Source: Pseudomonadota bacterium
Lineage (GTDB): Bacteria; Desulfobacterota; Desulfovibrionia; Desulfovibrionales; Desulfovibrionaceae
Reading direction: 5' to 3'
Length of the DNA: 64,000 bases
Assembly: GCA_023386035.1 (NCBI GenBank)
Contig: JAEWKM010000050.1
Coordinates: 67,694-131,693, forward strand
Below the pieces are notes generated by a model. The model had not been told where the DNA came from. It ran no database searches and saw only the letters and a list, made by a program, of their open reading frames with translations. A program made the translations under genes and the position numbers. Below, one piece after another: positions 11,057 through 32,359 of this stretch. The stretch's first letter is position 1, and each line of letters begins with the position of its first letter.

Positions 11057-13630
11057 TCAGGCATCGTTCTGCTGTTCGTCATCTTCTGGTTCGTCATTCT
11101 GTGCCGGCTGGGCATCAGCCGGAGCTGTAACCGCAGGAGCTTCGCCCCCTTCAACGGTCTCATCAGACATTATTTCGTCCAGTTCTTCATTCACATAACG
11201 GCCCGTCTGGCCGCCCTCGTCCACACGGTCAAAGCCCACAACGTGGCCGCCTTCGTCCAGACGCACCAGCATGACGCCCATAGTGGCGCGGCCCTTGGTG
11301 CGCACTTCGTCCACACTGATGCGCACGATCTTGTTGGCCGAAGTCAGCAGGATAAGGCCGTCATTGTCGCGCACAGGCATGGCCCCAACCACAGGCCCGG
11401 TTTTGCCCGTGACCTTGAAGTTGATGATGCCCTTGCCGCCGCGCGATTGCAGGCGGTAAAGCTCGACACTGGTGCGCTTTCCGTAGCCATTGGCCGAAAT
11501 GGACATGATTTCCGTGGTCTGGTCCGTTTCCTTCATGATAACGCCAGCAACCACAAAGTCCTGCCTGCGCAGGGCAATGCCCTTGACGCCCGTGGCCACG
11601 CGGCCCATAGGCCGCACATCCCGGCAGGAGAAACGTATGGCTATGCCGTCTGCCGTGGCCAGCACGATATGGCTGTCTTCACGGATGGGACGCACTACCA
11701 CCAGTTCGTCGTCTTCACGCAGACCCACGGCCATGAGGCCCGTCTTGCGGCAACGCGCATAGAGCGAAGCCGAGGAACGCTTGACCATGCCGCGCTTGGT
11801 GACGAAGAGGAAATACTTGTCCTCGGCAAATTCGCGCAGGGCCAGCACGGTGGTGACCCACTCGTTATCCTCAAGCGGCAGCAGGTTGTTGATGTGCACG
11901 CCCTTGGCCGTACGGCTGCCCTCCGGCACCTGATGCACCTTGAGCTGGTGCATGCGCCCCTTGTTGGTGAAGAGGCAGAGGTACTGGTGGTTGGTTGTGC
12001 TCAAAAATTCCTGCACATAGTCATCGTCAGAAGTGTGCAGGGCCGCAATGCCCTTGCCGCCGCGCTTCTGCTGCTGATAGTTTTCAAGCCCGGTGCGCTT
12101 CATGTAGCCACGGCGCGACAGGGTGATGACCACTTCTTCATCAGGAATGAGGTCTTCAATATCTATATCCGTAAGAGCTTCGCGCAAGACCTCGGTACGG
12201 CGGGGCGTTGCAAAAGTTTCGCGGATCTCGCTGATTTCGCGTCTGAGTTCGTTGCGCAGCACTTCGGAATTTTCCAGAATGGAGCGGTAGAATTCGATCT
12301 TTTGCAGCAGGTCCTTGTATTCGGCCATAAGCTCTTCACGCTGCAGGCCCGTAAGGCGCTGCAAGCGCATTTCAAGAATGGCCTTGGCCTGAATTTCAGT
12401 GAATTCAAAGCGCTTCATAAGGGCGTTGCGGGCTTCTTCCGGGTTCGCAGACGCACGGATAAGAGCCACAACTTCGTCAATATTGTCGATGGCAACGCGC
12501 AGGCCTTCAAGAATGTGGGCGCGGGCCTCGGCCTTCTCAAGATCATAGCGCGTGCGGCGAATGACCACTTCACGCCTGTGATCCACAAAGCAGGTCAGGG
12601 CCGTCTTGAGGTTCAGCAGCTGCGGGCGGTTGTCCACCACGGCCAACATGTTGATGCCAAAGCTGGTTTCCAGCGGCGTGAACTTGTACAAGCCGTTGAT
12701 GACTATATCAGGAATGGTGCCGCGCTTGAGGTCGATAACCACGCGGATGCCCTTGCGGTCAGATTCGTCGCGCAGGTCGGTGATGCCGTCGATCTTGCGG
12801 TCGTTGACCAGAGCCGCGATTTTTTCCACCAGGGAAGACTTGTTGAGCCCGTAGGGAATTTCTCTGATAACAATGGATTGAAAACCCTTCTTGCGCTCTT
12901 CAATTTCCATACGGCCACGCACCTTAACGGTGCCGCGCCCGGTGTGATAGGCGTCGTAAAGTCCCTTGCCAGCATAAACAAAACCGCTGGTGGGAAAGTC
13001 CGGACCTTTCACATGCTCCATAAGATCGTCAACGCTGCACTGGGGATTGTCCAGCAGCACCTGCAGGGCATCGCACAGTTCGCCCAGGTTGTGGGGCGGA
13101 ATATTGGTGGCCATACCAACGGCAATACCGGAGCTGCCATTGACCAGCAGGTTGGGCACCTTGCTGGGCATAACCGTGGGTTCCTGCAAGGTATTGTCAT
13201 AGTTGGGCCGGAAATCTACGGTGTTTTTGTCCAGGTCGCCCAGAAATTCCTGGGCCAGCTTGGACATGCGCACTTCGGTGTAACGCATGGCCGCCGGGGC
13301 GTCGCCGTCGATGGAGCCAAAGTTGCCCTGCCCGTCCACCAGAGGATCGCGCATGGAAAATTCCTGCGCCATACGCACCAGGGCGTCATACACCGCCGAG
13401 TCACCGTGGGGGTGATACTTACCGATAACGTCACCGACCACGCGGGCGGATTTTTTATGCGGGCGGTTGTAGTTGTTGGCAAGCTCGTACTGAGCGAACA
13501 TGATGCGCCTGTGTACGGGCTTCAGGCCGTCACGCGCGTCGGGAATGGCGCGCCCGATGATGACCGAAAGGGAATACTCCAAGTACGACTTGCGGAGTTC
13601 TGTTTCTATGCTTATCTGCGGCTGCTGCAT
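11057..13630 (-). CDS. gyrA: DNA gyrase subunit A (alternative GTG start at 13651)
   Basis: [46 protein letters not shown] and the active-site region AAMRYTEVR. Acidic C-terminal tail. Confidence 0.96.
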
Positions 13631-13864
13631 TTCTGCCACTGCGGGCCTCACTGCTTTTTTTGAGGGGTAGTTGGGTGACCGCCCCTGGGCGGTCGGGGCA
13701 TAACGCCCCGAAACCCCTTTTCAAATGTTACTTGCGAAAACACCCGGTTGACGGTCAATATTTTCGCATCACACAAAATAAATCTCTGCCGGAAGGCGTG
13801 AAAAAGAGGCGCCAGTACAACAGGGGCCTCCCCTCACAGCGCATGCTTCCAGCATACTATTCCA

Positions 13865-17424
<3,560 letters not shown>

Positions 17425-17572
17425 AAATTCTTTCCTTAACTATTATTAGCCCTGTTTCTTTGTTCGTAATTTATAAAACACTTTGTAAAGATTGAACTTT
17501 TTAGGGAACATTTCAACGTGCTTTTAGGGAACGTCAGTAACAACCGCCAAGCCTGCTGGCCAATTTGGACGG

Positions 17573-18958
17573 TCAGGGTGTTTTCATTTCAAACTCTGTC
17601 ACTAACTTCTGTACCCTTTTGTCACTAACTAGAAGTTTGTTAATCTTTTTAATGGCATGGATGACTGTACTATGGTCTCTTCCGCCAAAAGCTCTGCCCA
17701 ATTCCGGGTAGGAAAGTCCCAGTTTCTGGCGGCATACATACATGGCTATTTGCCTTGCCAGCACAAGGTCTGGCCGCCGTTTGCCACCAAGTACGTCGTC
17801 AGGCTTGAGGTTGAGACCTTTTGCCACTTCGGTGAGAATTTCTCTGCAGCCCGGCATTTTTTCAGCAACGCCAGTACGCACAATATTTTCAAGGTCGGTT
17901 TGGGTCAGATTAAGCCCTTTGACCGCGCAATATGCCCCCACCTTGAGAATAAGACCCTGCAAAAGGCGAAACTGCGAACAACGCTGTGCAAGAAAAAGCA
18001 GCTGTTCCCTTGTGAGGGGCAGGCGGCGTTCTTTGCACATGAGCTGCAGGTAACGCAGACGCACATCCAGGTCAGGCTCCATCAATTCCACCACAAGGCC
18101 GCTCTCGAGCCGGGAACGCAGGCGTTCGTCCAGTGTTCTGAGAGCTTGTGTCTGCCCGGAGCAGGCAAAAATCATACGCGGGGTGGCTCTTCCCTTTTTA
18201 TTGTGAAAAGCCATCGTGGCTGCCGCTGAAGCCGCGTCCTGGCGGTCAAGCGACGGAGTATTCTCCTGCCTGCCGGGGCAGGCGTCCATACAGGCCACAA
18301 GTTTGTTCTGCCAGCTGCTGTTGCCGGACATGTCCTGTATGTCATCAAGTACAAGCACGTCATAACGCTGCCAGAAAAGCTCGGGGCTTTTGGCCCAGGC
18401 AGTGTCGTCGGAAAAAAAGCGGACAGAATTGGTGCAGACCATACGCGCTGCATCCGTTGTGCGCGCCAGCATGGTTGCCATTGACTGTAAAAGAAGGCTT
18501 TTGCCAGTACCGCTTCGCCCACAGACCAGAAAAGGATTGTAGGCCGTGGTATTGGTGTTTCCGGAAATTTCTTTGGCTGTAGCGAGAGGAAAGGTGTTTT
18601 TGCCGTTAAAAATAAACCCGGCAAAAGGATCGTTCTGCGGGCCCTCGTTTTCAGCGCTGCGCGAAAGGGAACTGCGGCTTGCGGGCATGACGGTTGCCAC
18701 GTCCGGGGCGCTGGCAGAAGTGCGCTCGTAAATTATCTGCGGCGCCGGGCCTGCCTGCTGCTCATTAAAGTGGCGGCTAATGGCTTCTTCAAAGGCGGCG
18801 CGTTTGTGCCTGCTGAACCAGGCCGCAAAATACATGTGCGGAAAAATCACTTTCAGGGTGTTTTCTTCCTGGCGCAGTGTAAGGCTGTCCAGCCAGGATG
18901 TTTCTCCTGTAATGGTCTGGTTTTCGGCCAGTATATCCCGCAACTCGTTTTTAAGCAT
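17573..18958 (-). CDS. dnaA: Chromosomal replication initiator DnaA
   Basis: Walker A GRSGTGKSLLL. Sensor and box VII regions. C-terminal DNA-binding signature ARQIAMYVCRQKLGLSYPELGRAFGGRDHSTVIHAIKK. Start set at MLKNELRDIL; the longer ORF to 19222 runs through DnaA boxes. Confidence 0.93.
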   Translation of the reverse strand: MLKNELRDILAENQTITGETSWLDSLTLRQEENTLKVIFPHMYFAAWFSRHKRAAFEEAISRHFNEQQAGPAPQIIYERTSASAPDVATVMPASRSSLSRSAENEGPQNDPFAGFIFNGKNTFPLATAKEISGNTNTTAYNPFLVCGRSGTGKSLLLQSMATMLARTTDAARMVCTNSVRFFSDDTAWAKSPELFWQRYDVLVLDDIQDMSGNSSWQNKLVACMDACPGRQENTPSLDRQDAASAAATMAFHNKKGRATPRMIFACSGQTQALRTLDERLRSRLESGLVVELMEPDLDVRLRYLQLMCKERRLPLTREQLLFLAQRCSQFRLLQGLILKVGAYCAVKGLNLTQTDLENIVRTGVAEKMPGCREILTEVAKGLNLKPDDVLGGKRRPDLVLARQIAMYVCRQKLGLSYPELGRAFGGRDHSTVIHAIKKINKLLVSDKRVQKLVTEFEMKTP

Positions 18959-18993
18959 AGCTCTGTGGTTCAGTGTCCACTCAGGGCGTACCC

Positions 18994-19002
18994 TGTGGAT
19001 AA
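18994..19002. promoter_or_regulatory. Perfect DnaA box TGTGGATAA (complement TTATCCACA)
   Basis: Exact 9-mer, 36 nt upstream of the proposed dnaA start. Confidence 0.75.
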
Positions 19003-19128
19003 AGACTTTTCCGCGGCCCTTCGCTGGCCCGTTTTTTTCGGCTTTCGCCGTACAGGAACAAGGGGTATTCATAACACAAAAGATGAACGCAAACAAGAGG
19101 TCCGTCATGGCCTGCAAACAGCGATCCT

Positions 19129-19147
19129 TGTGGACAACTGTGGAAAA
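19129..19147. promoter_or_regulatory. Two adjacent one-mismatch DnaA boxes (TGTGGACAA, TGTGGAAAA)
   Basis: cTTGTGGACAActgTGGAAAActg; same orientation as the perfect box. Confidence 0.6.
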
Positions 19148-19233
19148 CTGCACCGTTTTTGTGTGCGAAGACTGATTTAACCAAGAATGTGATTTGGTGT
19201 GTCTGGTTGTGGGAAAGTACATGCGGGAGCAGA

Positions 19234-21646: not shown

Positions 21647-22420
21647 TTATCCCTTGTTGAGCAGCTTGGCGGCAAAGGCCGCAGCGCCAAAGCCGTTATC
21701 GATATTGAGGGTGGCCACGCCGGGCACGCAGGTACTGAGCATGGTTGAAAGCGCCGCAAAGCCCCCAGCCCCGATGCCATAGCCCACAGAGGTGGGCACC
21801 GCCAGAACCGGGCAAGACACAAGTCCTGCCAGCACCCCGGGCAATGCGCCTTCCATACCGGCCACAGCGATGATGATACGCGCCTTGCGCAGGGCTTCCA
21901 CGTGGGTTGTAAGCCTGTCGAGGCCAGCCACGCCCACATCGGTTATCAAAGCGCATTCCTTGCCCCAGAACGCGAGAGAACAGTATGCTTCAAGCGCAAC
22001 AGGAAGATCCGCCGCGCCTGCGGTAACTACTATTACTTCGCCAGCAAGTGGCCAGGGAGCCTTCATGGCCTTGGCAAAACCTGACGCGCCGCCCAGGGAA
22101 AACAGGCGGGCATCGGGCCAGTACTGACCCACTGAAAAACGTTCTTCAAGCAGTGCCGCCTGCGCAGGAGTCACCCGGCTGACCAGCACCTCTCCGTGCT
22201 GGGCCAGACCTTCAACAGCCGCCATCAGCGCGTCGTCGCTCTTGCCCTGGGCCAGAACAACCTCGGAAAGGCTGGTGCGCAGCGCACGTTGCGGGTCAAG
22301 GGTAAGGCCATGCAGCGTGTTACGCACAGCTTGCGTCCCCAGAAGGTCCAGAGCTGTTTCAGGCTTCAACCCGCCAGCGGCCACTTGTTCCAGAATTTTC
22401 AGTAATTGGATGTTGGACAT
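21647..22420 (-). CDS. larB: Nickel-pincer cofactor biosynthesis protein LarB (PurE/AIR-carboxylase-like)
   Basis: N-terminal LarB region (TLDPQRALRTSLSEVVLAQGKS) and C-terminal PurE-like fold (IIIAVAGMEGALPGVLAGLVSCPVLAVPTSVGYG). Start set at MSNIQLLKIL. Confidence 0.8.
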   Translation of the reverse strand: MSNIQLLKILEQVAAGGLKPETALDLLGTQAVRNTLHGLTLDPQRALRTSLSEVVLAQGKSDDALMAAVEGLAQHGEVLVSRVTPAQAALLEERFSVGQYWPDARLFSLGGASGFAKAMKAPWPLAGEVIVVTAGAADLPVALEAYCSLAFWGKECALITDVGVAGLDRLTTHVEALRKARIIIAVAGMEGALPGVLAGLVSCPVLAVPTSVGYGIGAGGFAALSTMLSTCVPGVATLNIDNGFGAAAFAAKLLNKG

Positions 22421-22667
22421 GTATTTCTGTATACGGCACGCTTCGGATATTGTCAGCATTGTTGTATGGTCATTTCTGGAGCATTTTCAGAGGCAACCAG
22501 TGCTTGCAGAGCCAGCAGGTTTGCCGTGCATGACGGCCCGTTTCACAGGCGTGAAAACAAAAACTGTATGTCCGTGACAGCTCTGCCGTATTGCAAACCT
22601 GTACAGTTTTAATGTCTTTTGGCGTCAGTTGGTTGCATTGTATCGCGCTACACGGTAAGAAAAATTC

Positions 22668-24200
22668 ATGTTGACGCGCCGTCTGCTATTTCTCACCCCT
22701 GCCCAGGCTGTAACCACGGTCTTTCCTGCCCTGCGTGATGCCGGGTACGAACTTGGTATTGCTGAAAATCTCAAGGGCGCTTCTGTTTTTGTCCGCAAAT
22801 CCGGCCCGGGGATTATTTTTGCGCGTCCTTCCCTGCCCGGCTTTCGGGTGGAAGATCTTCTGGCCGTGGGAGCCGAAGATCCCAATTTTCCTCCGGTGAT
22901 CGTTATTACAGACAAGGGCACAGCCGAAGAAGCCGAGCGCCTTATGAGTCTTGGTGCTCAGGATTACTGGCTGGAGCCTCTTGATGTGGAACGCATTGTG
23001 GCTGTTGCCCGTTCCTTGGGCAATGGCGCGGCATCCCGCAAGGCGGCAGCACCTTCCACGTCCACCCTGGGCGGGCGAAAACCCCACTATGTGAACGCAA
23101 CCGGGCCGCGCATTGTGGGCAGGCATCCGGCTATGACCAGGGTGCTGCAACTGGCGCGTCAGGTCGCCGGTTCAAAAGCCACGGTGCTTATTACCGGTGA
23201 ATCGGGCACGGGCAAGGAAATGTTCGCCCGCTACCTGCACGCCATGAGCAAGCGCGGCGACAAGGCCTTTGTGGCGGTCAACTGCGCTGCCCTGCCGGAA
23301 CATCTTCTTGAAAGCGAGCTTTTCGGTCATGAAAAGGGCGCTTTTACCGGGGCCATAGCCCGCAAGCCCGGCAAATTTGAGCTGGCTGACGGCGGCACCC
23401 TGCTGCTGGACGAAATTTCTGAAATGGATATGGCTTTGCAGGCCAAGCTGTTGCGCGTGCTTCAGGAGGGCGAGGTGGACCGCGTGGGCGGCACGGAAAC
23501 GCTCAAGGTGGATGTGCGCGTGCTGGCCACCACCAACCGCGATCTTGAAGATTGGGTCAAGCAGGGCAAGTTCCGTCAGGACCTCTATTTCAGGCTCAAT
23601 GTCATTCCCTTGCGCCTGCCCTCATTGCGCGAACGCTGTGATGACGTGCTTGAGCTGGCCCATTTTTTTATGGATATGTATGTGCGCGAATACCAGTTGC
23701 CTCAGGCTGCCCTGTCTCAGAGCGCCGTTGACTGGATGCGCGGCTATGATTTTCCCGGTAACGTGCGTGAGTTACAGAATTTGATGGAACGCGCCGTGCT
23801 TTTGGCCAACGGCCGCCCCATAGAACCGCGCCACTTTTTGCTGGAAAATGACGACTGGCCCTTGTTTGAAGAAGATGAGGCGGAATTTGTTGCTGATGAG
23901 ACGCCAGTGGATGCAGCCGAATTTGGCGCAACACGGCCTGTTCTGAACACGGAACATTCGTCTGGTGCGGCAGATACGCATGACGTTCGAGAGGGCGTAT
24001 ATGCCACGCCACAGGCCTCTGCAAACGTATCCGGCGGTGCTGTGATACCTTTGCACGAAATGGAGCGCATAATGATCCTCAAGGGCCTGGAAGCCACATC
24101 GGGCAACCGGACCCAGGCAGCCGACCTTTTGGGCATTTCCGTACGCACCCTGCGCAACAAGCTCAACGAATACCGCGCCGCAGGGCACCCCATCGACTAA
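22668..24200 (+). CDS. Sigma54-dependent Fis-family transcriptional activator with a receiver-like N-terminal domain
   Basis: AAA+ core (GESGTGKE, GAFTGA, LLLDEI, RVLATTN) and a C-terminal Fis HTH (NRTQAADLLGISVRTLRNKL). The N-terminal roughly 120 aa are receiver-like but lack the acidic pocket. Confidence 0.92.
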   Translation: MLTRRLLFLTPAQAVTTVFPALRDAGYELGIAENLKGASVFVRKSGPGIIFARPSLPGFRVEDLLAVGAEDPNFPPVIVITDKGTAEEAERLMSLGAQDYWLEPLDVERIVAVARSLGNGAASRKAAAPSTSTLGGRKPHYVNATGPRIVGRHPAMTRVLQLARQVAGSKATVLITGESGTGKEMFARYLHAMSKRGDKAFVAVNCAALPEHLLESELFGHEKGAFTGAIARKPGKFELADGGTLLLDEISEMDMALQAKLLRVLQEGEVDRVGGTETLKVDVRVLATTNRDLEDWVKQGKFRQDLYFRLNVIPLRLPSLRERCDDVLELAHFFMDMYVREYQLPQAALSQSAVDWMRGYDFPGNVRELQNLMERAVLLANGRPIEPRHFLLENDDWPLFEEDEAEFVADETPVDAAEFGATRPVLNTEHSSGAADTHDVREGVYATPQASANVSGGAVIPLHEMERIMILKGLEATSGNRTQAADLLGISVRTLRNKLNEYRAAGHPID

Positions 24201-24222
24201 CGCCCCATTTGCATAAAAATAA

Positions 24223-24250
24223 AGAAACCCCGGTTTAACCGGGGTTTCTT
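24223..24250 (+). terminator. Rho-independent terminator
   Basis: AGAAACCCCGG-tttaa-CCGGGGTTTCT followed by T. Confidence 0.7.
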
Positions 24251-24483
24251 GCCTCTGGCGAATCAGCGCCGCATCATTGCCGTATCTGCCAGTGCTTTCT
24301 TTGGGATATGGATAAAAGGGCAATGATAAGGAGCGCGGCGTTAAGGGCCGGAAGAGTGCCTCTTTTCAGAAAATTGTTCACTGCGGCCTGCGCCGTAAGT
24401 TTGCCAGTGTTTTGTGGTTAACGCCTGTTGCCAAACGCCGGGCCATTGCCCTTTTCTTGCGCCACTTCCCGAAAATCTAAATT

Positions 24484-25160
24484 CTAGCAGCCGTTGTTGA
24501 TGGTGCAGCAGGATTTTTTGAGTTTTTCGTACAGCCAGGTGAAATCCAGGGTGCCCCGCTCTTCAATCCGGCGCAGTTTTTCCAGTCCATCGGCAGTGAT
24601 TTTTTCAGCCTGCGCAGCCAGTTCTTCAGCTTCTTCGGCGCGCACGGCCACGATGCCGTCGTCATCAGCCACAATTATGTCGCCGGGGTTTATGACCACG
24701 TTACCAATACTGATGGGCACGTTTATTTCGCCGCAGGTGTCCTTGTAAGGACCGTTTGGCGAGACGGGCGGGCGTATACGGGAAAGGGCAGCTCTTTCAG
24801 CGCACGCGCGTCCCGCACGGCTCCGTCGATAACAAATCCGGCCAGACCACGCTTCATGGCCAGATTGGCCATTATTTCTCCGCAGACAGCGCGTTCATCA
24901 TACGCGCCGCACGACACCACAAGCACGTCGCCGGGATTGGCATTGTCGACCGCATAATACAGCAACAGATTTTCGCTGGCAGGCAGGTTCACCGTGTAGG
25001 CCGAACCAACTATGCGGCTGACGCCCAGGGGTTTGAGGGCTGACGGAAAGGCAGCGTTACGGCCCAGGGCATCGCAGATGTCGGCAACCGCGAGGTTGGC
25101 ATACTGATTTATTATGGCAACAGGCAGGCGGTCGAGCTGGCGGTTGATGACAAAACGCAT
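24484..25160 (-). pseudogene. RraA-family protein (RraA / HMG-CHA aldolase / oxaloacetate decarboxylase family) interrupted by a frameshift
   Basis: ORFs 24723-25160 and 24484-24720 are the N- and C-terminal halves of one RraA-like protein. The second frame reads ..VSPNGPYKDTCGEINVPISIGNVVINPGDIIVADDDGIV upstream of its nominal start. The frames join at the GGG run at 24766-24768. Confidence 0.75.
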
Positions 25161-25266
25161 GAATGAGCCTTAGCGGAGCTTTTGTTGAAAATTTTGCGCC
25201 CATCCGTCGGTATGGCGAACGATGACGGATGGGCGCACTCAATTGGGCATGGAGGAGTGAGTTGCC

Positions 25267-26607
25267 CTACTTGCCAGGTTGCGGCGCGGCAACCGGGGAA
25301 GCATTGTCGATGACGTCGAGATCCACGTCCTTGTCCAGCAGATCTTCCACATCAACCTTGCCACTGAGCACGAGGTTGGCGCGGTCAAGATCGATGGACT
25401 TTTCCCAGCGGCCGATGGCCACGGTGGCCACACAGTTACCGATGAGGTTAACCACGGCGCGCATTTCGTTAAGAATGCGGTCAATACCGATAACCAGGGT
25501 CATACCGACCACAGGAATGATATTGGTGGCCGACAAGGTAGCTGCCAGGGCGATAAGAGCCGCGCCAGCAACACCTGCGCCACCTTTGGAGGTCAACAGC
25601 AGGACGAGCATCAGCGTGATCTGGTGCTGGAGATCCAGATGGATGTCCATAGCCTGGGCGATGAAGGAAGCGGCCATGGTAAGATAGATGGCAGCGCCGT
25701 CAAGGTTGAAGGAGTAGCCAGTGGGGAACACGAGGCCCACAACGGACTTCTTGATGCCGAGGGCTTCCATCTTTTCCATGCTGCGGGGCAGAACGGCTTC
25801 AGTGCTGGCAGTACCAAGGGTAATGAAGATTTCTTCCTTCATGTACTTGATAAGCTGCCAGATATTGATGCCGGAGAATTTGCAGACAAGGCCCAGAATA
25901 ATGATAACGAAGAGCGCGCTTGTAATGTAAAGGCAGGCCACAAGCTTGCCCAGTGAGGCCAGAGCGCCCACGCCGTACTTGCCGATGGTAAACGTGATAG
26001 CGCCGAATGCACCGATAGGCGCAAGCTTCATGATCAGGTTAACCACACCGAGGAAGGCGTTGCTGAAACGGTCAAGCGTGCCGAGAATGGCCATCTTGGG
26101 CTTTTCGCCCATGTGGGAAAGGCTCATGCCGAAGAGCACGGAGAACAAGAGCACCTGGAGGAGATTACCTTCAGCAAAGGCACCCACCACGCTGTGGGGG
26201 ATGATGCCCATGAGAAATTCCTGGGTGGTCTGCTGTTTGGCATGCGCGAACTTGCCCAGAGCAGAGGCGTCCATAGTGGCGGGGTCGGCATGAATGCCGG
26301 CGCCGGGCTGGACGAAATGCACAACAACAAGGCCGATAAGCAGTGCAAGAGTCGTGACAATTTCAAAATAAAGCAGTGTTTTACCGCCAACTCGACCTAC
26401 AGCCTTAAGGCTTTCCATACGGGCAATGCCTACGGCAACCGTACAGAAGATAACGGGCGTAATGATCATCTTGATCAAATTGATGAAGACGTCGCCAAGC
26501 GGTTTGAGTTTTACGGCAATATCAGGCTGAATGAAACCAAACGCAATGCCGAGGACAATACCCAAAAGCACCTTGAAATAAAGAGAAGAAAATACTTTCT
26601 TTGACAT
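25267..26607 (-). CDS. dctA: Dicarboxylate/amino acid:cation symporter (DctA/GltP family)
   Basis: Typical DAACS sequence (SLYFKVLLGIVLGI, GTASTEAVLP, MNEMRAVVNLIGN). Start at MSKKVF with a GAGG RBS. Confidence 0.88.
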   Translation of the reverse strand: MSKKVFSSLYFKVLLGIVLGIAFGFIQPDIAVKLKPLGDVFINLIKMIITPVIFCTVAVGIARMESLKAVGRVGGKTLLYFEIVTTLALLIGLVVVHFVQPGAGIHADPATMDASALGKFAHAKQQTTQEFLMGIIPHSVVGAFAEGNLLQVLLFSVLFGMSLSHMGEKPKMAILGTLDRFSNAFLGVVNLIMKLAPIGAFGAITFTIGKYGVGALASLGKLVACLYITSALFVIIILGLVCKFSGINIWQLIKYMKEEIFITLGTASTEAVLPRSMEKMEALGIKKSVVGLVFPTGYSFNLDGAAIYLTMAASFIAQAMDIHLDLQHQITLMLVLLLTSKGGAGVAGAALIALAATLSATNIIPVVGMTLVIGIDRILNEMRAVVNLIGNCVATVAIGRWEKSIDLDRANLVLSGKVDVEDLLDKDVDLDVIDNASPVAAPQPGK

Positions 26608-26736
26608 AGTTACCTCAAACACAGGTAGTGTATGGGGGGGGCGCTACCAGCTTGCGGCATTGCATTTGGCGTTGCGCCCGAAAGGACGAAGGGCCGACGC
26701 CGGGTTTTTTACCGGCGTCGGCTCTTAAGTAATCCT

Positions 26737-27897
26737 TTATGCGCTTTCGTACAGACGGGTCATGATAAATTCGCGATGACCCAGAGCTTCAGCGGCGGTG
26801 TTACGGCCGTTGCAGGTGCGAACGAGCATTTCAAGCAGCATGTCGCCAGCCTGATCCATGTTGATTTCGCGGCGCAGCAGGCCGGAAACGTCCACGTCGA
26901 CGTGTTCGTTCATGGTGCGCACGGTGCGGGGGTTGGCCGACAGTTTGATCACGGGCAGGATGGGGTTGCCGATGATGTTGCCCTGGCCAGTGGGGAAGAA
27001 GTGGGCCACAAATCCGGAAGCAGCGCACAGGGTAACCATTTCGGCCGCGGCGGAAGAGGAGTCCATGAACCACAGGCCGGGGCCGGTGGGGGTTTCGGCC
27101 TTGTCGAGGCAGCCGATGACCGGAGCCTTGCGGCCGATCTTCTGGATGTTGCCAAGAGCTTTTTCTTCGATGGTGGTCAGGCCGCCTTCGATGTTGCCCT
27201 TGGTGGGCTGGGAGTCGCAAAGGTCGTTGGTCTTGTTGTCGTCAACAAGCTTGGCGTAGCGGTCAAAGAAAGCCTTAAACTTGGAGCGCACGTCGTCATT
27301 GGCACAGCGGGCCATGACCAGGTGTTCGCCGCCCGTGATTTCGGTGGTTTCACCGAACAGGGTGGTGGCGCCGGCTTCCCACAGTTTGTCGAAAGCGTTG
27401 CCAACGGTGGGGTTGGCGGCAATACCGGAAGTGGTGTCGGATTCGCCGCACTTGGTGGAAACCCACAGTTCGTCAAGGCTGCATTCGGTGCGCTGCAGTT
27501 CGGTGGCGTAGTGGACAAATTCTTTGGCTTTGAGGGAAGCGGCGCGGATGGTTTCCAGGTCGCCGTGCTGCTCAATGCCGAAGCCCACAACAGGCTTGCC
27601 GGTTTTGGCAATGCCGTCAACCACGCGCTGGGTCCACACGGGCTCGATGCCGATAACGACAACGGCGGCCACGTTGGGGTTGCTACCCGTGCCGATCAGG
27701 GTGCGGAAATGCAGGTCGAGGTCTTCACCGAACTGCAGGCGGCCGTAAGCGTGGGGCAGGGCCATGGTGCCCTTGATGTTGTTGGCAACGGCTTCGCAAG
27801 CGGCGTTGGAAAGGTCGTCCAAAGGCAGAATGATCACATGGTTACGAATGCCCACGCGGCCATTTTCGCGGCGGTAGCCCATAATTGTCTTATTCAT
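26737..27897 (-). CDS. UxaA/GarD-family dehydratase/lyase, large subunit (SuyB-like architecture)
   Basis: [23 protein letters not shown]...[17 protein letters not shown] matches the catalytic domain of the altronate/galactarate dehydratase family. It is encoded separately from the SAF domain. GAGGTGG RBS. Confidence 0.8.
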
Positions 27898-27901
27898 TGG
27901 T

Positions 27902-28186
27902 TTACCACCTCTTGGTTTTGACGTTGTGCACATGCAGGTGCTCGCCACGCTTGATGGGCTTGACCACCTTGCCGATGTCGGTGCCGTATTTGATAACGGT
28001 GTCGCCTTCAGCAAGATCCTGAAGGGCAATCTTGTGACCGATCGGAATGTCGCTCAGAGTTTCAAACACCAAGGTGGTGTCGCCGTCCATTACCCAGCCG
28101 TTGAGTTGGTCGCCCTTCTTGACGCCTTCAACCACGACCACGCCGACGCTGTCGCCGGGTTCATGCACCACAAAGTGGGTTGTCAT
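27902..28186 (-). CDS. SAF-domain small subunit of a split UxaA-family enzyme (SuyA-like architecture)
   Basis: 94 aa. [27 protein letters not shown] is typical of the SAF/UxaA N-terminal domain. AAGGAG RBS. The stop lies 4 nt before the large-subunit start. Confidence 0.78.
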
Positions 28187-28367
28187 ACTTGTCTCCTTGG
28201 ATAGTATGGTAGTAATAAAACGTAAATTGATGTACAAGAGATCTCTAAATTGCATACTTTTTATGCGTAAATGCATTTGCTGTGTAGTTAAATACAAGAC
28301 AAAATTCTTGTATTACACCGCATATGCAATTTGATCACTTGTTGTACCCTAGTCTTGACCAGGTATA

Positions 28368-28383
28368 AGCAAGGTGCATGCCA
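28368..28383 (-). promoter_or_regulatory. Sigma54 (-24/-12) promoter
   Basis: Minus strand reads TGGCATGCACCTTGCT. GG and GC have canonical spacing (consensus TGGCAC-N5-TTGCW). It points toward the SAF/UxaA-like genes and lies between them and the divergent sigma54 activator gene. Confidence 0.75.
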
Positions 28384-28526
28384 AAATAGTAGGAAGGTGG
28401 GTAATCAGCGCCATATAAGGATTTTTTTTCACAATGTTGATTGGTTAACCAACTAATAATGCCCATTTTGTGTAAAACTGCTTGTATTTGGGCAATAGAA
28501 TGATTAAATGTGGGCAGAGGTGAGTT

Positions 28527-30176
28527 ATGCCCTACGAGATTTCCGCAGATGGTTTGAGTAATCCTTCCCAGACAGTAGGCCAGGTTGTGCATCATCTGGC
28601 CCGGCTGGTTGTGGGAAAAATGGACCGTAATGCTTTTTTTCGCATGCTATCAAAACAGCTGCGCGTTTTGTTTCACTATGACCGTTTCTGTATCAACCTT
28701 TATGATGCCGAAAGGGAATTTCTCAATCTTTTTACGGCAGCCGACGGCACCGTGGTGGAATCGCTCTCCAACACACGCATTGCCCAGAACACAGTGGCCG
28801 GGCTTGCCATTGCCTCGCGCAAGCCCGTGGTCATCAATGACCTGGCAAATCACGACTTTGGCGACTCCCCCATGCCCCTTTCTACGGTAGGGCTCAATTC
28901 CACCATTGCCCTGCCCCTGATTATCAGTGGCGAAGTTATAGGCACGCTGCACGTCTCTTTTGTGAAGCCGCCGGAAAACATCGTGCAGATTCTCAATGTT
29001 CTTCTGGAGTTGAGCCCGGTGTTGTCCAGTTTTCTTTTTGCCGTGCTGTCTGAAGAACGCCTTGAAAAGGCCCGTGCCGCGCACGCTACCCTGCCGCAAG
29101 CGCCCGACGTCGACACCACGGGCAGTATCCTGCTGTCGTCCAATCTGCTTGAAACTCCTGACATGCACAGGCTTATGGCCCTGGCCCGCAAGGTGGCCAA
29201 ACTGCATATATCGGTAATGATTGTGGGCGAAACGGGCACAGGCAAAAGTATGATGGCCCGCTGGCTGCATCGTCACAGCCCTCGCCGGGGAAGCAATTTT
29301 GTGAAGGTCAACTGCCCTTCCCTGCCCCCTACCCTGTTTGAAAGCGAAATGTTCGGCTATGCCAAGGGTGCTTTTACCGGGGCCACCAGCAAACGCATGG
29401 GCCGTGTGGAGCTGGCGCAGGGCGGGACGCTTTTTCTGGACGAGATAGGCGAACTTGCGCCCGAAATGCAGAGCAAGCTTTTGCAGGTGCTTGAAGAAAA
29501 CTCTTTTGAGCGTGTGGGCGAAGCTTCGCCCATTGGCGTTGATATCCGCGTCATGTCTGCCACCAATATAGATCTTGGGGCAGCTATGGACGAAGGCCGC
29601 CTGCGCCGTGACCTGTATTATCGCCTGGGATCAGTCGTGCTGCGCATGCCGCCACTTCGTGAAAGAAAGAACGATATACCCCTGTTTGTTGAGCATTTTG
29701 TGCAGCAATTTGCCAAAGAATACGAAATAACGCCGCCGAAGCTCTCCCGTTCAGTTATGGAATCCCTGTATGAGCACCGCTGGCCCGGCAACACGCGTGA
29801 ACTGCGCAACGTGGTAAGCCGTCTGCTGCTGCAAACTCTGGACGGCCCCATTACCGACAGTTTTGTGGCAGAAGCACTGCATCTTTGGAAAATTCCGGCA
29901 GAAGGCATTGTGCCAGGCCCAACGGTTCCGGCGGTCGCCACCCTTCCTGGCCCACCGTCCGGCGGCTGGCAGGTACCGATTATGCCCCAGCCAGCAACAG
30001 ATAATATTGGTGGCTTGTCGGCTTTGCCCACGCTTGAAGAAAATGAAAAAGCGCATATTGAAAAGGCGTTGCGCCTTAGCGGGGGCAAGCTTTCCGGCCC
30101 TGGCGGCGCTGCCACGCTGCTTGATGTGCCGCGCTCGACCTTGCAGCACCGTATGCGCAAACTGGGCATACAATAA
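28527..30176 (+). CDS. Sigma54-dependent Fis-family activator with an N-terminal GAF-like sensor domain
   Basis: GAF-like N-terminus. AAA+ core (GETGTGKS, GAFTGA, LFLDEI). C-terminal HTH (AATLLDVPRSTLQHRMRKLGI). Confidence 0.9.
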   Translation: MPYEISADGLSNPSQTVGQVVHHLARLVVGKMDRNAFFRMLSKQLRVLFHYDRFCINLYDAEREFLNLFTAADGTVVESLSNTRIAQNTVAGLAIASRKPVVINDLANHDFGDSPMPLSTVGLNSTIALPLIISGEVIGTLHVSFVKPPENIVQILNVLLELSPVLSSFLFAVLSEERLEKARAAHATLPQAPDVDTTGSILLSSNLLETPDMHRLMALARKVAKLHISVMIVGETGTGKSMMARWLHRHSPRRGSNFVKVNCPSLPPTLFESEMFGYAKGAFTGATSKRMGRVELAQGGTLFLDEIGELAPEMQSKLLQVLEENSFERVGEASPIGVDIRVMSATNIDLGAAMDEGRLRRDLYYRLGSVVLRMPPLRERKNDIPLFVEHFVQQFAKEYEITPPKLSRSVMESLYEHRWPGNTRELRNVVSRLLLQTLDGPITDSFVAEALHLWKIPAEGIVPGPTVPAVATLPGPPSGGWQVPIMPQPATDNIGGLSALPTLEENEKAHIEKALRLSGGKLSGPGGAATLLDVPRSTLQHRMRKLGIQ

Positions 30177-30439
30177 GGGAAACGCTGATTTATTCCGTTT
30201 GGCGGCGTTGCTTCCTTTTTTTGAAACAGTCGAGGACGGAAGAGTCCACTCTTGCTTCAAAAAAAGATCGGGCCTTGCCAAACGAAATAACTGCGCGTTT
30301 ACAGGAGGCTCTTTAATCAGTGCTTCCTAAGACGAGCAGAAGCCTTTTCCGGCGATTGCTCAGTCTTTCTTGAGTTTCCACCAGATTGCGCATATGATGC
30401 CGCTCTACGTCAAAAGCAATTATGCATTCCGGAGTCCGC

Positions 30440-32359
30440 ATGCTTGAGTATATCCGCGATAAATCACAGTCCTTGGGCGTCAAACTGGCCTTTGTGCTCA
30501 TTATCCTCGTCTTTGTTTTCTGGGGCGTGGGCAATTTTAACGACCGCAGCGCGGGCACCCTTGTGGCCGTGGTCAATGGCGATGCCATTACCATGCGTGA
30601 ATTTGAATCTGCCTACCGCAATGCCGAAGAAAATCTGCTGCGCAACGACCCCTCGCTTACCCGCGAGCAGCTGAAGGAACAGCAGCTGGGCCGTCAGGTG
30701 CTGCGTGACCTTGTCACGCAGGTGTTGCTTTCGCAGGAAGCGGTTCGCACGGGCGTAACAATTACGCCTCTGGAACTGCGCATGGCCATTGGCGGCATCA
30801 AGAGCTTCCAGAACGAAAACGGGCAGTTTGATCCCAACGTCTATACCCGCGTGCTGGCGACACAGCGTATTGCCCCTGCACAGTTTGAGCACGATACCTC
30901 GCGCGACATGCTGCGGCAGAAGATTTACGCTATGGTGACGGCTCCTGCTTGGGCTGACCCCGCCGAAGCGCAGAAGCGTTTTGAATTTTTGCGCGAAAAG
31001 CGTGACGTGGACTACATTTTTATAGATTCCGCAGAGTTTGCCCCTTCCATCAAGCCTACTGAAGAGGAAGTGGCCGACTTCTACGAAAGCAATAAGGCGC
31101 AATTCGCCGTGCCCGCCAAGGCAGATATCTCCTATGTTCTGGTCAATCCTCAGGATTTGGTAAAAGCCAGCAGCATCAGCTCTGCCGACGCGCAAAAATG
31201 GTATGAAGGCAACGCTGCCCGTTTTGAGCAGAAAGAAGAAGTTAAGGTCGCCCATATTCTTGTGCCGCTGGCTGAAGACGCGTCTGCAGCCGAAGTGAAA
31301 AAGGCCGAGGATCAGGTTGCCAAGATTGAAGCTGAAATCAAATCCGGCAAAAGCTTTGCCGCAGTGGCCGATGAGCACAATGGCCCCAACGCTGCCGGCC
31401 CTGGTGGCGAGCTTGGCTGGGTCAAACGCAGCATGACGGTCAAGCCCTTTGAAGACGCCGCTTTTGCGCTTGACGCGGGCAAGGTTTCTGCCCCGGTGCG
31501 TACCCAGTTTGGCCTGCACATCATCAAGGTTGAAGAAAAGAAGGCTGGCGGGCTGCCGCCCTTCAAGCAGGTTGAAGCCCAAGTGCTGGCGGCCATGACT
31601 CAGGAACAGGGCGTGGACAAGCTGCACGACGTGGTCGACAGCCTTGTTGAAGACAATATTCTTGGCCGTCCTCTGAAGCAGGGCGCGGAAAAGTACGGCC
31701 TCAAATGGGGTGATACCGGCCTGCTTTCAGCCGCTGAACTTGAAAAAACGCTGGGCGTTACCGCCGCTGGCGCGGCCATTCTTGTGGGCACCCCGGCTGG
31801 CAACCCTGTAGATACGGCCCTTGAGGCCGGAAAGTCCTATGTGGTCGCCCGCGTGCTCAAATCAGAACCCGCAACAACAGCTCCCCTTGAATCTGTGAAG
31901 GGCCAGATCGTTAAGGCCCTTGTTGCGCAGAAGGCGCTTGTGGCAGCTATGGACGCGGCCGCGCAGCTGCGCAAGGAACTGGATGCCGCTCCTCTTGGCG
32001 CGGCGGGCCTCAAGGGCCGCGAAATCAAAAACATCAAGGGTGTGGAGCGCAACGGCGGCCTGGCCAGCTTTGCTCCCGATCCGGAAATGACCGCAGCCCT
32101 GTTTGAAGCCAAGGCCGGGCAATGGCTGCCCGTGGCCTACGCTGTTGAGGGCGATAACGGCGCTGGCGCTGTTCTGGTGCGTGTTAAAGGCGTGCAGGCT
32201 CCCGACGCTGGCGAATGGGACATGGTCAAGGACATCATGGGCAACGCCGTTACCCGTGACCGTGCTGACGGCCTGTTTGAAATGTTTATGCAGCGCCTTG
32301 TTTCCGGTGCCAAGATCGAAGTGTATAACGAAGATTTTGTTGACCGGAAGAACATGTAA
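30440..32359 (+). CDS. ppiD: Periplasmic chaperone / peptidyl-prolyl isomerase PpiD-like (SurA N-domain plus parvulin domain)
   Basis: MLEYIRDKSQSLGVKLAFVLIILVFVFWGV membrane anchor. Parvulin-like HILV...GGELGWV...FGLHIIKV. GGAG RBS. Confidence 0.85.
   Translation: MLEYIRDKSQSLGVKLAFVLIILVFVFWGVGNFNDRSAGTLVAVVNGDAITMREFESAYRNAEENLLRNDPSLTREQLKEQQLGRQVLRDLVTQVLLSQEAVRTGVTITPLELRMAIGGIKSFQNENGQFDPNVYTRVLATQRIAPAQFEHDTSRDMLRQKIYAMVTAPAWADPAEAQKRFEFLREKRDVDYIFIDSAEFAPSIKPTEEEVADFYESNKAQFAVPAKADISYVLVNPQDLVKASSISSADAQKWYEGNAARFEQKEEVKVAHILVPLAEDASAAEVKKAEDQVAKIEAEIKSGKSFAAVADEHNGPNAAGPGGELGWVKRSMTVKPFEDAAFALDAGKVSAPVRTQFGLHIIKVEEKKAGGLPPFKQVEAQVLAAMTQEQGVDKLHDVVDSLVEDNILGRPLKQGAEKYGLKWGDTGLLSAAELEKTLGVTAAGAAILVGTPAGNPVDTALEAGKSYVVARVLKSEPATTAPLESVKGQIVKALVAQKALVAAMDAAAQLRKELDAAPLGAAGLKGREIKNIKGVERNGGLASFAPDPEMTAALFEAKAGQWLPVAYAVEGDNGAGAVLVRVKGVQAPDAGEWDMVKDIMGNAVTRDRADGLFEMFMQRLVSGAKIEVYNEDFVDRKNM

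Follow-up and report, generated by a model that had tools for sequence, protein, structure and literature searches.

Organization of the locus

The stretch of DNA analyzed here covers 64,000 nucleotides of contig JAEWKM010000050.1 (positions 67,694 to 131,693 of the forward strand) in the assembly GCA_023386035.1 of a bacterium of the Desulfovibrionaceae, and the whole of it is referred to below as the window. On the minus strand, four genes follow one another in a row, namely a 94-aa open reading frame (ORF), a 386-aa ORF, a 446-aa ORF and an RraA-like ORF, which are called suyA, suyB, dctA and the rraA-like gene in the following text (Table 1). A gene for a sigma-54 activator is oriented divergently from suyA. 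With a probability of roughly 0.78, we interpret this locus as a compact sulfolactate-utilization operon of a Desulfovibrio from the D. desulfuricans group.

The original prediction, which was made from the letters of the sequence, described a UxaA/GarD-type enzyme split into a 94-aa SAF subunit and a 386-aa catalytic subunit with a 4-nt gap between the genes, and both the coordinates (gap at 27898-27901) and the Pfam searches agree with this description. The suyA product matched the Pfam family SAF with 22.9 bits (cut-off 21), while the suyB product matched GD_AH_second with 118 bits and GD_AH_C with 284 bits. The start of dctA was set at the ATG chosen by the gene callers in identical contigs. 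In the window, suyAB is accompanied by a transporter and a regulator, and no further sulfonate gene was found within the 64 kb. First, tblastn searches of the window with LarA, ComC, 2-hydroxyacid dehydrogenase, HpsN/O/P, 3-hydroxyisobutyrate dehydrogenase (HIBADH) and aldehyde dehydrogenase (ALDH) representatives gave no matches. Second, no matches were obtained in the same 64 kb with representatives of TauE, DASS, SdhA, FumA/B, TctA/C, DctM, PALP and SorA.

Table 1. Features of the suyAB locus, in window positions
Feature	Position	Strand	Basis
suyA, small SAF subunit, 94 aa	27902..28186	-	ORF with AAGGAG ribosome-binding site; Pfam SAF
suyB, large catalytic subunit, 386 aa, SuyB clade	26737..27897	-	GD_AH_second and GD_AH_C; neighbour-joining tree
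dctA, DAACS-family carrier, 446 aa, proposed 3-sulfolactate importer	25267..26607	-	NF002461
RraA-like (HMG/CHA-aldolase-like) gene, frameshifted in the window	24484..25160	-	Pfam RraA-like
Divergent sigma-54 activator with GAF, AAA+ and HTH_8 domains, 549 aa	28527..30176	+	Pfam, NCBIfam
Sigma-54 (-24/-12) promoter TGGCATGCACCTTGCT, 197 nt upstream of suyA	28368..28383	-	Exact consensus match
Two candidate activator-binding sites, TGCCCACATTTAATCA and TGCCCAAATACAAGCA	28479..28516	-	Conserved in upstream alignment
Third candidate half-site TGGGCA, 82 nt upstream of the -24 element	28460..28465	-	Weak evidence
11-bp GC-rich stem-loop in the suyB-dctA gap, without T tract; possible attenuator or stabilizer	26693..26722	-	Read from sequence
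13-bp stem-loop right behind dctA, followed by AAAATTTT, without T tract	25196..25236	-	Read from sequence
Strong intrinsic terminator, 13-pair stem and T tract	24222..24250	-	Terminator scan

Membership of SuyAB in the sulfolactate sulfo-lyase clade

To place the two subunits, homologs were collected from plasmids and genomes. A tblastn search with SuyB against 72,556 plasmids gave a bimodal result, in which 13 records matched at 65-77% identity and no other record exceeded 40%. The top plasmid match (77%) was the pair behind hpsN-hpsO-MFS-hpsP on the megaplasmid of Cupriavidus pinatubonensis, and it was in this hps cluster, which encodes the 2,3-dihydroxypropane-1-sulfonate (DHPS) pathway, that SuyAB was defined (PMC6278857, PMC12890257). 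The match in Paracoccus versutus (68.5%) was flanked by a GntR regulator and a gene of the 'putative sulfate exporter family', a layout that corresponds to the suyAB-suyZ arrangement known from P. pantotrophus. In addition, when one genome per species was scanned, 79 loci were recovered whose SuyB proteins are 76-95% identical to that of the window; they belong to Desulfovibrionaceae, Beta- and Gammaproteobacteria, Acidobacteriota and further groups. Overall, the window SuyB was 69-100% identical to 93 clade relatives, 39-40% identical to other split UxaA enzymes and 28-30% identical to Escherichia coli UxaA and GarD (28% for GarD). The closer relatives include the SuyB of a DHPS-type cluster containing LarA, short-chain dehydrogenase/reductase (SDR), ABC, ALDH and HIBADH genes (locus L011, 94.6%), that of an hpsNOP cluster (L090, 89%), and proteins source-named D. 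desulfuricans (89%) and D. fairfieldensis (85%). The small subunit was 66-100% identical to SuyA in Desulfovibrionaceae loci and 62-64% identical to the small subunits of C. pinatubonensis (L001) and Paracoccus (L002).

A phylogeny of the subunits had been suggested as a check on the original prediction. In our unbootstrapped neighbour-joining tree, the window SuyB fell inside a tight SuyB clade, which is set apart by a long branch from E. coli UxaA/GarD as well as from the other split enzymes of the UxaA type. Within the clade, the tree follows taxonomy and not gene context; the maps of gene context, drawn with a gene caller weighted by GC content at third codon positions, are approximate. 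The clade was anchored by syntenic loci of sister strains together with identity thresholds from PMC6278857, not by the exact purified proteins. At the residue level, the window SuyB possesses all 37 of the clade-signature residues, defined by a conservation of at least 98% within the clade and by their absence from all outgroups (UxaA, GarD and three other split UxaA enzymes), and all 35 family-invariant core residues, including the C-G-x-S-D motif. Four positions that are invariant in the outgroups are replaced throughout the SuyB clade, namely G to S147, G to E152, P to K233 and R to Q305. Of these, S147 and E152 flank the C-G-x-S-D motif, while Q305 lies in T-G-Q-G, and the four residues are candidate determinants of sulfite versus water elimination. 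Judged by sequence comparison, suyA and suyB encode a two-subunit enzyme inside the clade of (2R)-3-sulfolactate sulfo-lyase (SuyAB, EC 4.4.1.24), in line with the main reading of the original prediction, with the 77% and 68.5% matches as its anchors.

The original prediction had rested this proposal on the split into a SAF and a catalytic subunit. The split is present, but it is not diagnostic of SuyAB, because split pairs at 39-40% identity also exist outside the SuyB clade, in Bacillus and Variovorax. The Bacillus pair sits in a cluster full of fucose and sugar-acid genes, and the Variovorax pair is accompanied by hydroxy-acid dehydrogenases. It is membership in the clade, as read from the sequences, and not the split architecture that decides the identity of SuyAB. 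We also noted that the distinct split pair on plasmid 3 of Variovorax sp. PBL-E5 (L093, 4702-6149; 39% identical to SuyB) is surrounded by a GntR regulator, a hydroxy-acid dehydrogenase, a TctC binding protein and an Ldh_2 (ComC-like) oxidoreductase; its layout resembles that of sulfolactate clusters, yet it falls outside the SuyB clade.

A different possibility, which the original prediction held to be equally valid, is that the pair forms a dehydratase of the UxaA/GarD family that acts on a sugar acid or another hydroxy acid and releases water instead of sulfite. Pfam and NCBIfam indeed recognize only generic altronate/galactarate dehydratase domains in these proteins, they are publicly annotated as 'UxaA family hydrolase' or 'D-galactarate dehydratase', and split UxaA pairs do occur in sugar-acid clusters. 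However, the identities to E. coli UxaA/GarD and to the other split pairs contrast with those inside the SuyB clade, the residues that are invariant in the outgroups are replaced clade-wide, and the score against the GarD equivalog TIGR03248 (141.6 bits) lies below its cut-off of 730.85, with the subunits split. In addition, the neighbours that recur around suyAB in the 79 surveyed clade loci are sulfonate genes, namely ComC-type Ldh_2, HpsN/O/P, HIBADH and ALDH of the DhpA/SlaB types of Desulfovibrio strain DF1, tripartite tricarboxylate transporter (TTT), tripartite ATP-independent periplasmic (TRAP) and ABC transporters, TauE and the sulfite dehydrogenase SorAB, whereas no sugar-acid gene family recurs in these loci. 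A sugar-acid substrate is highly improbable in our view. The statement that the substrate lay beyond the reach of sequence alone was also too cautious, as clade membership supports SuyAB more strongly than had been thought possible.

Promoter, upstream sites and sigma-54 activator

The 340-nt intergenic region between suyA and the activator gene contains the sequence TGGCATGCACCTTGCT in the right orientation for suyA, and the clear -24/-12 promoter reported in the original prediction was thereby recovered. It is the sole exact match to TGGCAY-N5-TTGCW in the 64-kb window, where 0.47 matches on both strands would be expected by chance. Besides the window, TGGCAY-N5-TTGCT is kept upstream of suyA in 19 related loci, in which the 5-nt spacer varies freely. 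An alignment of the upstream regions further revealed conserved TGCCCA-N4-xxxGCA sites, which precede the -24 element by 109-134 nt. The window has two of them, TGCCCACATTTAATCA and TGCCCAAATACAAGCA, which lie 22 nt apart and 111-133 nt upstream of the -24 element, the first of them 11 nt from the start codon of the activator gene. Candidate sites with the same spacing to the promoter are present in L003, L010, L011, L014, L021 and L089, and a stricter form of the pattern occurs once in the window against 0.17 expected. The TGGGCA half-site has counterparts at a similar position in L003 and L021.

The divergent gene encodes an activator with a GAF/GAF_2 domain, a sigma-54 AAA+ domain (PF00158, 212 bits) bearing an intact GAFTGA motif, and a C-terminal HTH_8, in agreement with the GAF-type sigma-54 activator of the original prediction. 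Together, the N-terminal sensor, the AAA+ domain with GAFTGA, the HTH_8 and the -24/-12 target are the features of a bacterial enhancer-binding protein, and the TGCCCA-type candidate sites would be where it binds. The GAF domain was 64-100% identical beside suyAB loci carrying five different cargo sets: DctA-RraA; LarA-SDR-ABC-ALDH-HIBADH; HpsNOP-ABC-TTT; TTT with ComC/2-hydroxyacid dehydrogenase; and genes resembling succinate dehydrogenase (Sdh) and fumarase (Fum). In about 20 additional suyAB loci of Desulfovibrionaceae, its identity was 29-49%. Across the suyAB loci of this family, the activator, promoter and upstream TGCCCA sites are thus kept irrespective of the accessory genes. Because sulfolactate is common to all of the cargo pathways, it is the most likely effector, and from these comparisons we put the chance that the activator senses it at about even.

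The remainder of the suyA leader was also inspected. Downstream of the sigma-54 promoter there is a perfect 9-bp inverted repeat, AATACAAGA-N6-TCTTGTATT (28290..28318, minus strand), which, like the rest of the leader, is not conserved between species and may represent an operator particular to the strain or a hairpin in the RNA. A riboswitch or other leader RNA in this 170-nt leader was considered and rejected, since an Rfam scan of positions 24000-30500 (E<=1) returned only weak sub-threshold matches, on the terminator hairpin at 24.2 kb.

The DctA-type carrier

The product of dctA contains a full-length SDF domain (PF00375 over residues 14-406) and scored 592.7 bits against the NCBIfam model NF002461 'C4-dicarboxylate transporter DctA' (cut-off 513), so that the DctA-type carrier which the original prediction placed downstream of suyAB was recovered. 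The suyAB-linked homologs of this carrier are 65-79% identical to it. For the homologs at 76, 72, 70, 65 and 65% identity, the gene context was examined; four lie directly downstream of suyAB (L100/101, L103, L104 and L105), while the fifth is located at a contig end and is uninformative. These four loci have SuyB proteins 75-90% identical to that of the window and occupy four different chromosomal settings. Two of them carry a GAF sigma-54 activator, one carries a GntR regulator, and one carries GntR downstream together with a divergent ComC. In addition, dctA is found within the suyAB operon of D. desulfuricans L089, in the order suyAB-MFS-larA-dctA-rraA.

3-Sulfolactate is the sulfonate isostere of malate, and for this reason a DctA-type carrier would be a natural importer of it. 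Since the homologs sit directly downstream of suyAB, we propose that the window DctA probably imports sulfolactate, and its role as candidate acid importer in the original prediction is strengthened by these contexts. The sulfolactate importers described so far are TTT and TRAP systems (PMC10507020), and a literature search for papers naming both sulfolactate and DctA returned none.

Alternatively, dctA and the rraA-like gene could form an independent C4-dicarboxylate module beside suyAB, in which DctA imports malate, fumarate or succinate, the RraA-like enzyme converts oxaloacetate to pyruvate, and sulfolactate enters through another transporter. The score of the carrier above the curated DctA threshold and its identity of 58-60% to canonical DctA, namely that of Burkholderiales, would fit such a module, as would the hairpin between suyB and dctA, the relationship of the RraA-like protein to an oxaloacetate decarboxylase (see below), and the presence of fumarate-reductase-like and fumarase-like genes in the D. 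fairfieldensis locus. However, all informative contexts of the 65-79% homologs are directly downstream of suyAB although background and regulator vary, and two of the four clusters are minimal, comprising only a regulator, suyAB and dctA with no other transporter. Moreover, the RraA-like clade also ends suyAB operons of D. legallii that lack DctA and bear TTT, and neither a -24/-12 match nor a convincing sigma-70 match for a separate promoter was found before dctA. An independent module of this kind is unlikely.

The RraA-like gene and the end of the operon

The original prediction mentioned an adjacent RraA/aldolase-like gene. This gene is present, but its frame is not intact in the window: about 131 codons are in frame, within an ORF that extends to 145, and the remainder lies in another frame. 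The contig L005, with 99.6% identity in this stretch and an identical SuyB, encodes an intact 225-aa RraA-like protein, and compared with it the window lacks a single T between positions 24768 and 24767. The deletion represents either a fresh pseudogene or an indel error of the assembly.

Homologs of this protein with at least 64% identity form a clade whose genes were seen exclusively at the end of suyAB operons, in four architectures from Desulfovibrio (the window; L008, D. fairfieldensis; L089, D. desulfuricans; L096/L097, D. legallii). The next relatives are at most 51% identical and occur in unrelated contexts. We considered the gene as a mere backbone neighbour and rejected this, as in D. 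legallii it ends the operon suyAB-tctCAB-larA-rraA at another chromosomal site. The suggestion that an RraA-like gene would fit a sugar-acid pathway was likewise not upheld, since its close homologs end suyAB operons and not sugar-acid clusters. The best solved relative is 3NOJ, the 4-hydroxy-4-methyl-2-oxoglutarate/4-carboxy-4-hydroxy-2-oxoadipate (HMG/CHA) aldolase/oxaloacetate decarboxylase of Pseudomonas putida, and the V-R-D stretch of the RraA-like protein aligns with that of 3NOJ; from this alignment, catalytic competence of the intact copies is plausible. The intact orthologue scored below all equivalog cut-offs (148.9 against 304.5 for TIGR02798, 164.7 against 179 for NF006731 and 212.3 against 231 for NF004850). 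Minimal suyAB-dctA operons exist without an RraA-like gene, which is a lineage-specific accessory and not essential to the module.

The strong terminator behind the rraA-like gene ends the suyAB-dctA-rraA unit and is common to a convergent gene (22668..24200, plus strand) for a second sigma-54 activator with a receiver-like N-terminus, AAA+ and HTH_8, whose position is kept in relatives. The stem-loop between suyB and dctA was not among the calls of the terminator scan. In the D. desulfuricans group the frame adjoining suyAB is constant, with glmS-ppiD and the activator on one side and the second activator, larB, an M23 peptidase gene and dnaA on the other, while the interval from suyB to rraA varies and the window holds its shortest version. 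Operons identical to that of the window are present in the assemblies GCA_014202345.1 and GCA_023400155.1. The genes dnaA-dnaN-gyrB-gyrA (11057..19222) lie about 6 kb from the operon, near the presumed chromosomal replication origin; dnaA and dnaN were assigned by Pfam in identical contigs, gyrB and gyrA from translations only.

Accessory genes of related suyAB loci

Two gene families beside suyAB in other genomes deserve mention. First, a LarA-family gene (Lar_N and LarA_C, the fold of nickel-pincer hydroxy-acid racemases) adjoins suyAB in 15 of the 79 surveyed loci, including L011, L017, L019, L021, L022, L030, L031, L037 and others, often without SlcC/ComC, and LarA-type genes also stand beside suyAB in D. 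desulfuricans (L089:12657-13913) and D. legallii (L096:5716-6966). The suyAB-linked LarA is a candidate one-enzyme sulfolactate racemase; a literature search for papers naming both LarA and sulfolactate gave incidental matches only. The window contains larB, a gene of cofactor synthesis, nearby (21647..22459, minus strand), but no LarA.

Second, suyAB is flanked in Desulfovibrionaceae as well as in Burkholderiaceae by paralogues of succinate dehydrogenase/fumarate reductase (flavoprotein, Fe-S and membrane/cytochrome b subunits) and of a class I fumarase with two subunits (L007-L009, in the D. fairfieldensis CP014229.1 region, L018, L027 and L038; L058-L060, L063, L065, L066, L074, L082 and L088). 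Their companions are TauE and a DASS carrier in Desulfovibrionaceae, and TctC and SorAB in Burkholderiaceae. By analogy with succinate, fumarate and malate, these paralogues could convert 3-sulfopropionate through sulfoacrylate to sulfolactate, which would explain the Sdh/Fum genes while leaving the specificity of SuyAB unchanged. Such a route matches one cited in PMC11489063, and the 3-sulfopropionate route in sulfite reducers was stated to be unknown as of 2024-2026 (PMC11489063, PMC12890257).

These genes also bear on the possibility that the operon acts on a C4 sulfonate, with DctA importing 3-sulfomalate or a sulfosuccinate-derived acid, SuyAB also or instead yielding sulfite and oxaloacetate, and the RraA-like enzyme converting the latter to pyruvate. 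Under this reading no gene would be left without a function, as both the RraA-like enzyme and the use of a C4-dicarboxylate carrier would be accounted for, and it would agree with the confinement of the RraA-like clade to suyAB operons and with the Sdh- and fumarase-like paralogues flanking suyAB in two phyla. If true, it would amount to an undescribed gut route for the respiration of C4 sulfonates, for example those derived from sulfosuccinate. Against it, the window SuyB is 94.6% identical to the SuyB of a DHPS-type cluster and 89% identical to that of an hpsNOP cluster, the clade tree follows taxonomy, the minimal suyAB-dctA operons lack the RraA-like gene, that gene is broken in the window, and the 3-sulfopropionate route explains the Sdh/Fum paralogues at least as well; a literature search for papers naming both sulfosuccinate and sulfo-lyase found none. 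A pathway from sulfosuccinate through sulfomalate to oxaloacetate was what we first proposed for the Sdh/Fum and RraA-like genes, and it was demoted because the SuyB sequences do not split by context. We regard action on a C4 sulfonate as very unlikely.

Proposed pathway and significance

Under sulfolactate utilization, 3-sulfolactate would be taken up by the DctA-type cation symporter. SuyAB, with Fe(II), would then remove the C2 proton and eliminate sulfite from C3 (beta-elimination), giving enol-pyruvate and hence pyruvate. Pyruvate would be converted to acetate with a yield of ATP, and sulfite would be reduced to H2S by a dissimilatory sulfite reductase (Dsr) encoded elsewhere. The GAF domain of the activator would sense a shared pathway intermediate, most likely sulfolactate, and the activator, bound to TGCCCA-type sites about 110-130 bp upstream, would open the -24/-12 promoter. 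Because no racemase (LarA or SlcC/ComC) was found in the window, only the (R)-isomer would be used by the module as encoded, unless a racemase lies elsewhere. The identities of the genes, the clade of the enzyme, the linkage of the genes and the conservation of promoter and sites are read from the sequences, and in this scheme we infer the substrate of the carrier, the effector of the activator, the co-transcription of the genes and the activity of the enzyme.

Several points weigh against sulfolactate utilization and were taken into account in its probability. First, for this protein and this strain the case is built on sequence comparison, and the clade was anchored without the exact sequences of P. 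pantotrophus NKNCYSA and Desulfovibrio DF1. Second, by sequence the carrier is an ordinary member of the DctA subfamily, and its substrate is suggested by gene linkage only. Third, a GC-rich hairpin stands between suyB and dctA, whose co-transcription is presumed. Fourth, the 64-kb window holds no sulfolactate racemase, dehydrogenase or sulfite-handling gene by tblastn. Fifth, the conserved RraA-like partner has no role in the proposed scheme.

Sulfolactate is formed when dietary sulfoquinovose, DHPS and cysteate are degraded, and gut bacteria that reduce sulfite release H2S when they desulfonate it, which is relevant to gut health. Three predictions of this analysis appear to be unpublished. 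First, there may be a sub-branch of DctA dedicated to sulfolactate uptake. Second, a conserved family of GAF sigma-54 activators may control suyAB across Desulfovibrionaceae through a defined promoter and candidate sites. Third, suyAB and the activator may constitute a fixed core that takes different feeder modules, among which DHPS oxidation, a LarA-type racemase, uptake by TTT, ABC, TRAP or DctA systems, and Sdh/Fum-like genes were seen. All three elements, namely the branch of DctA carriers, the activators and their sites, and the modular cargo, are new but incremental. The most interesting finds belong to the related loci and not to the window, namely the LarA-type candidate racemases and the Sdh/Fum-like paralogues, the latter of which may bear on how sulfite reducers degrade 3-sulfopropionate.

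Comparison with known systems

Recombinant SuyAB of Desulfovibrio sp. DF1 converts sulfolactate to pyruvate and sulfite (Burrichter et al., PMC6278857), and homologs more than 70% identical to it were reported in D. fairfieldensis and D. desulfuricans (PMC6278857). The original prediction was correct in stating that SuyAB-dependent degradation of sulfolactate and DHPS had been reported for a Desulfovibrio isolate (PMC6278857). SuyAB in gut Desulfovibrio was thus already published in 2018, and nothing is new here about the enzyme itself. The window shares with P. pantotrophus NKNCYSA, C. pinatubonensis JMP134 and Desulfovibrio DF1 the same two-gene architecture and subunit sizes (SAF about 94 aa, catalytic about 386-393 aa), and with strain DF1 the same predicted role in a sulfite reducer (PMC6278857). 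Unlike those loci, it has neither adjoining DHPS-oxidizing genes (hpsNOP or dhpA/slaB) nor a SuyZ/TauE exporter, and its transporter is a DctA-type secondary carrier; its regulator is a sigma-54 GAF activator, whereas proteobacterial suyAB loci have GntR or LacI regulators.

In the published system of a Desulfovibrionaceae gut bacterium, SuyAB is likewise the desulfonating step in the respiration or assimilation of sulfolactate, and induction by sulfolactate was shown there. Those clusters employ TTT (SlcHFG) or TRAP (DctPQM) importers and the SlcC/ComC dehydrogenase pair as racemase, while the window has a DctA carrier of the dicarboxylate/amino acid:cation symporter (DAACS) family and no racemase. 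Compared with the DctA C4-dicarboxylate:cation symporters of this family, the window carrier belongs to a sub-branch (at least 65% identity) that is linked to suyAB wherever the context is readable, and its proposed substrate would be the sulfonate analogue of malate. Finally, SuyAB belongs to the same superfamily as E. coli UxaA and GarD (PDB 6U7L) and shares their domain set of SAF, GD_AH_second and GD_AH_C, but in the E. coli enzymes these domains are fused into one polypeptide of 495-523 aa, and the leaving group is water.

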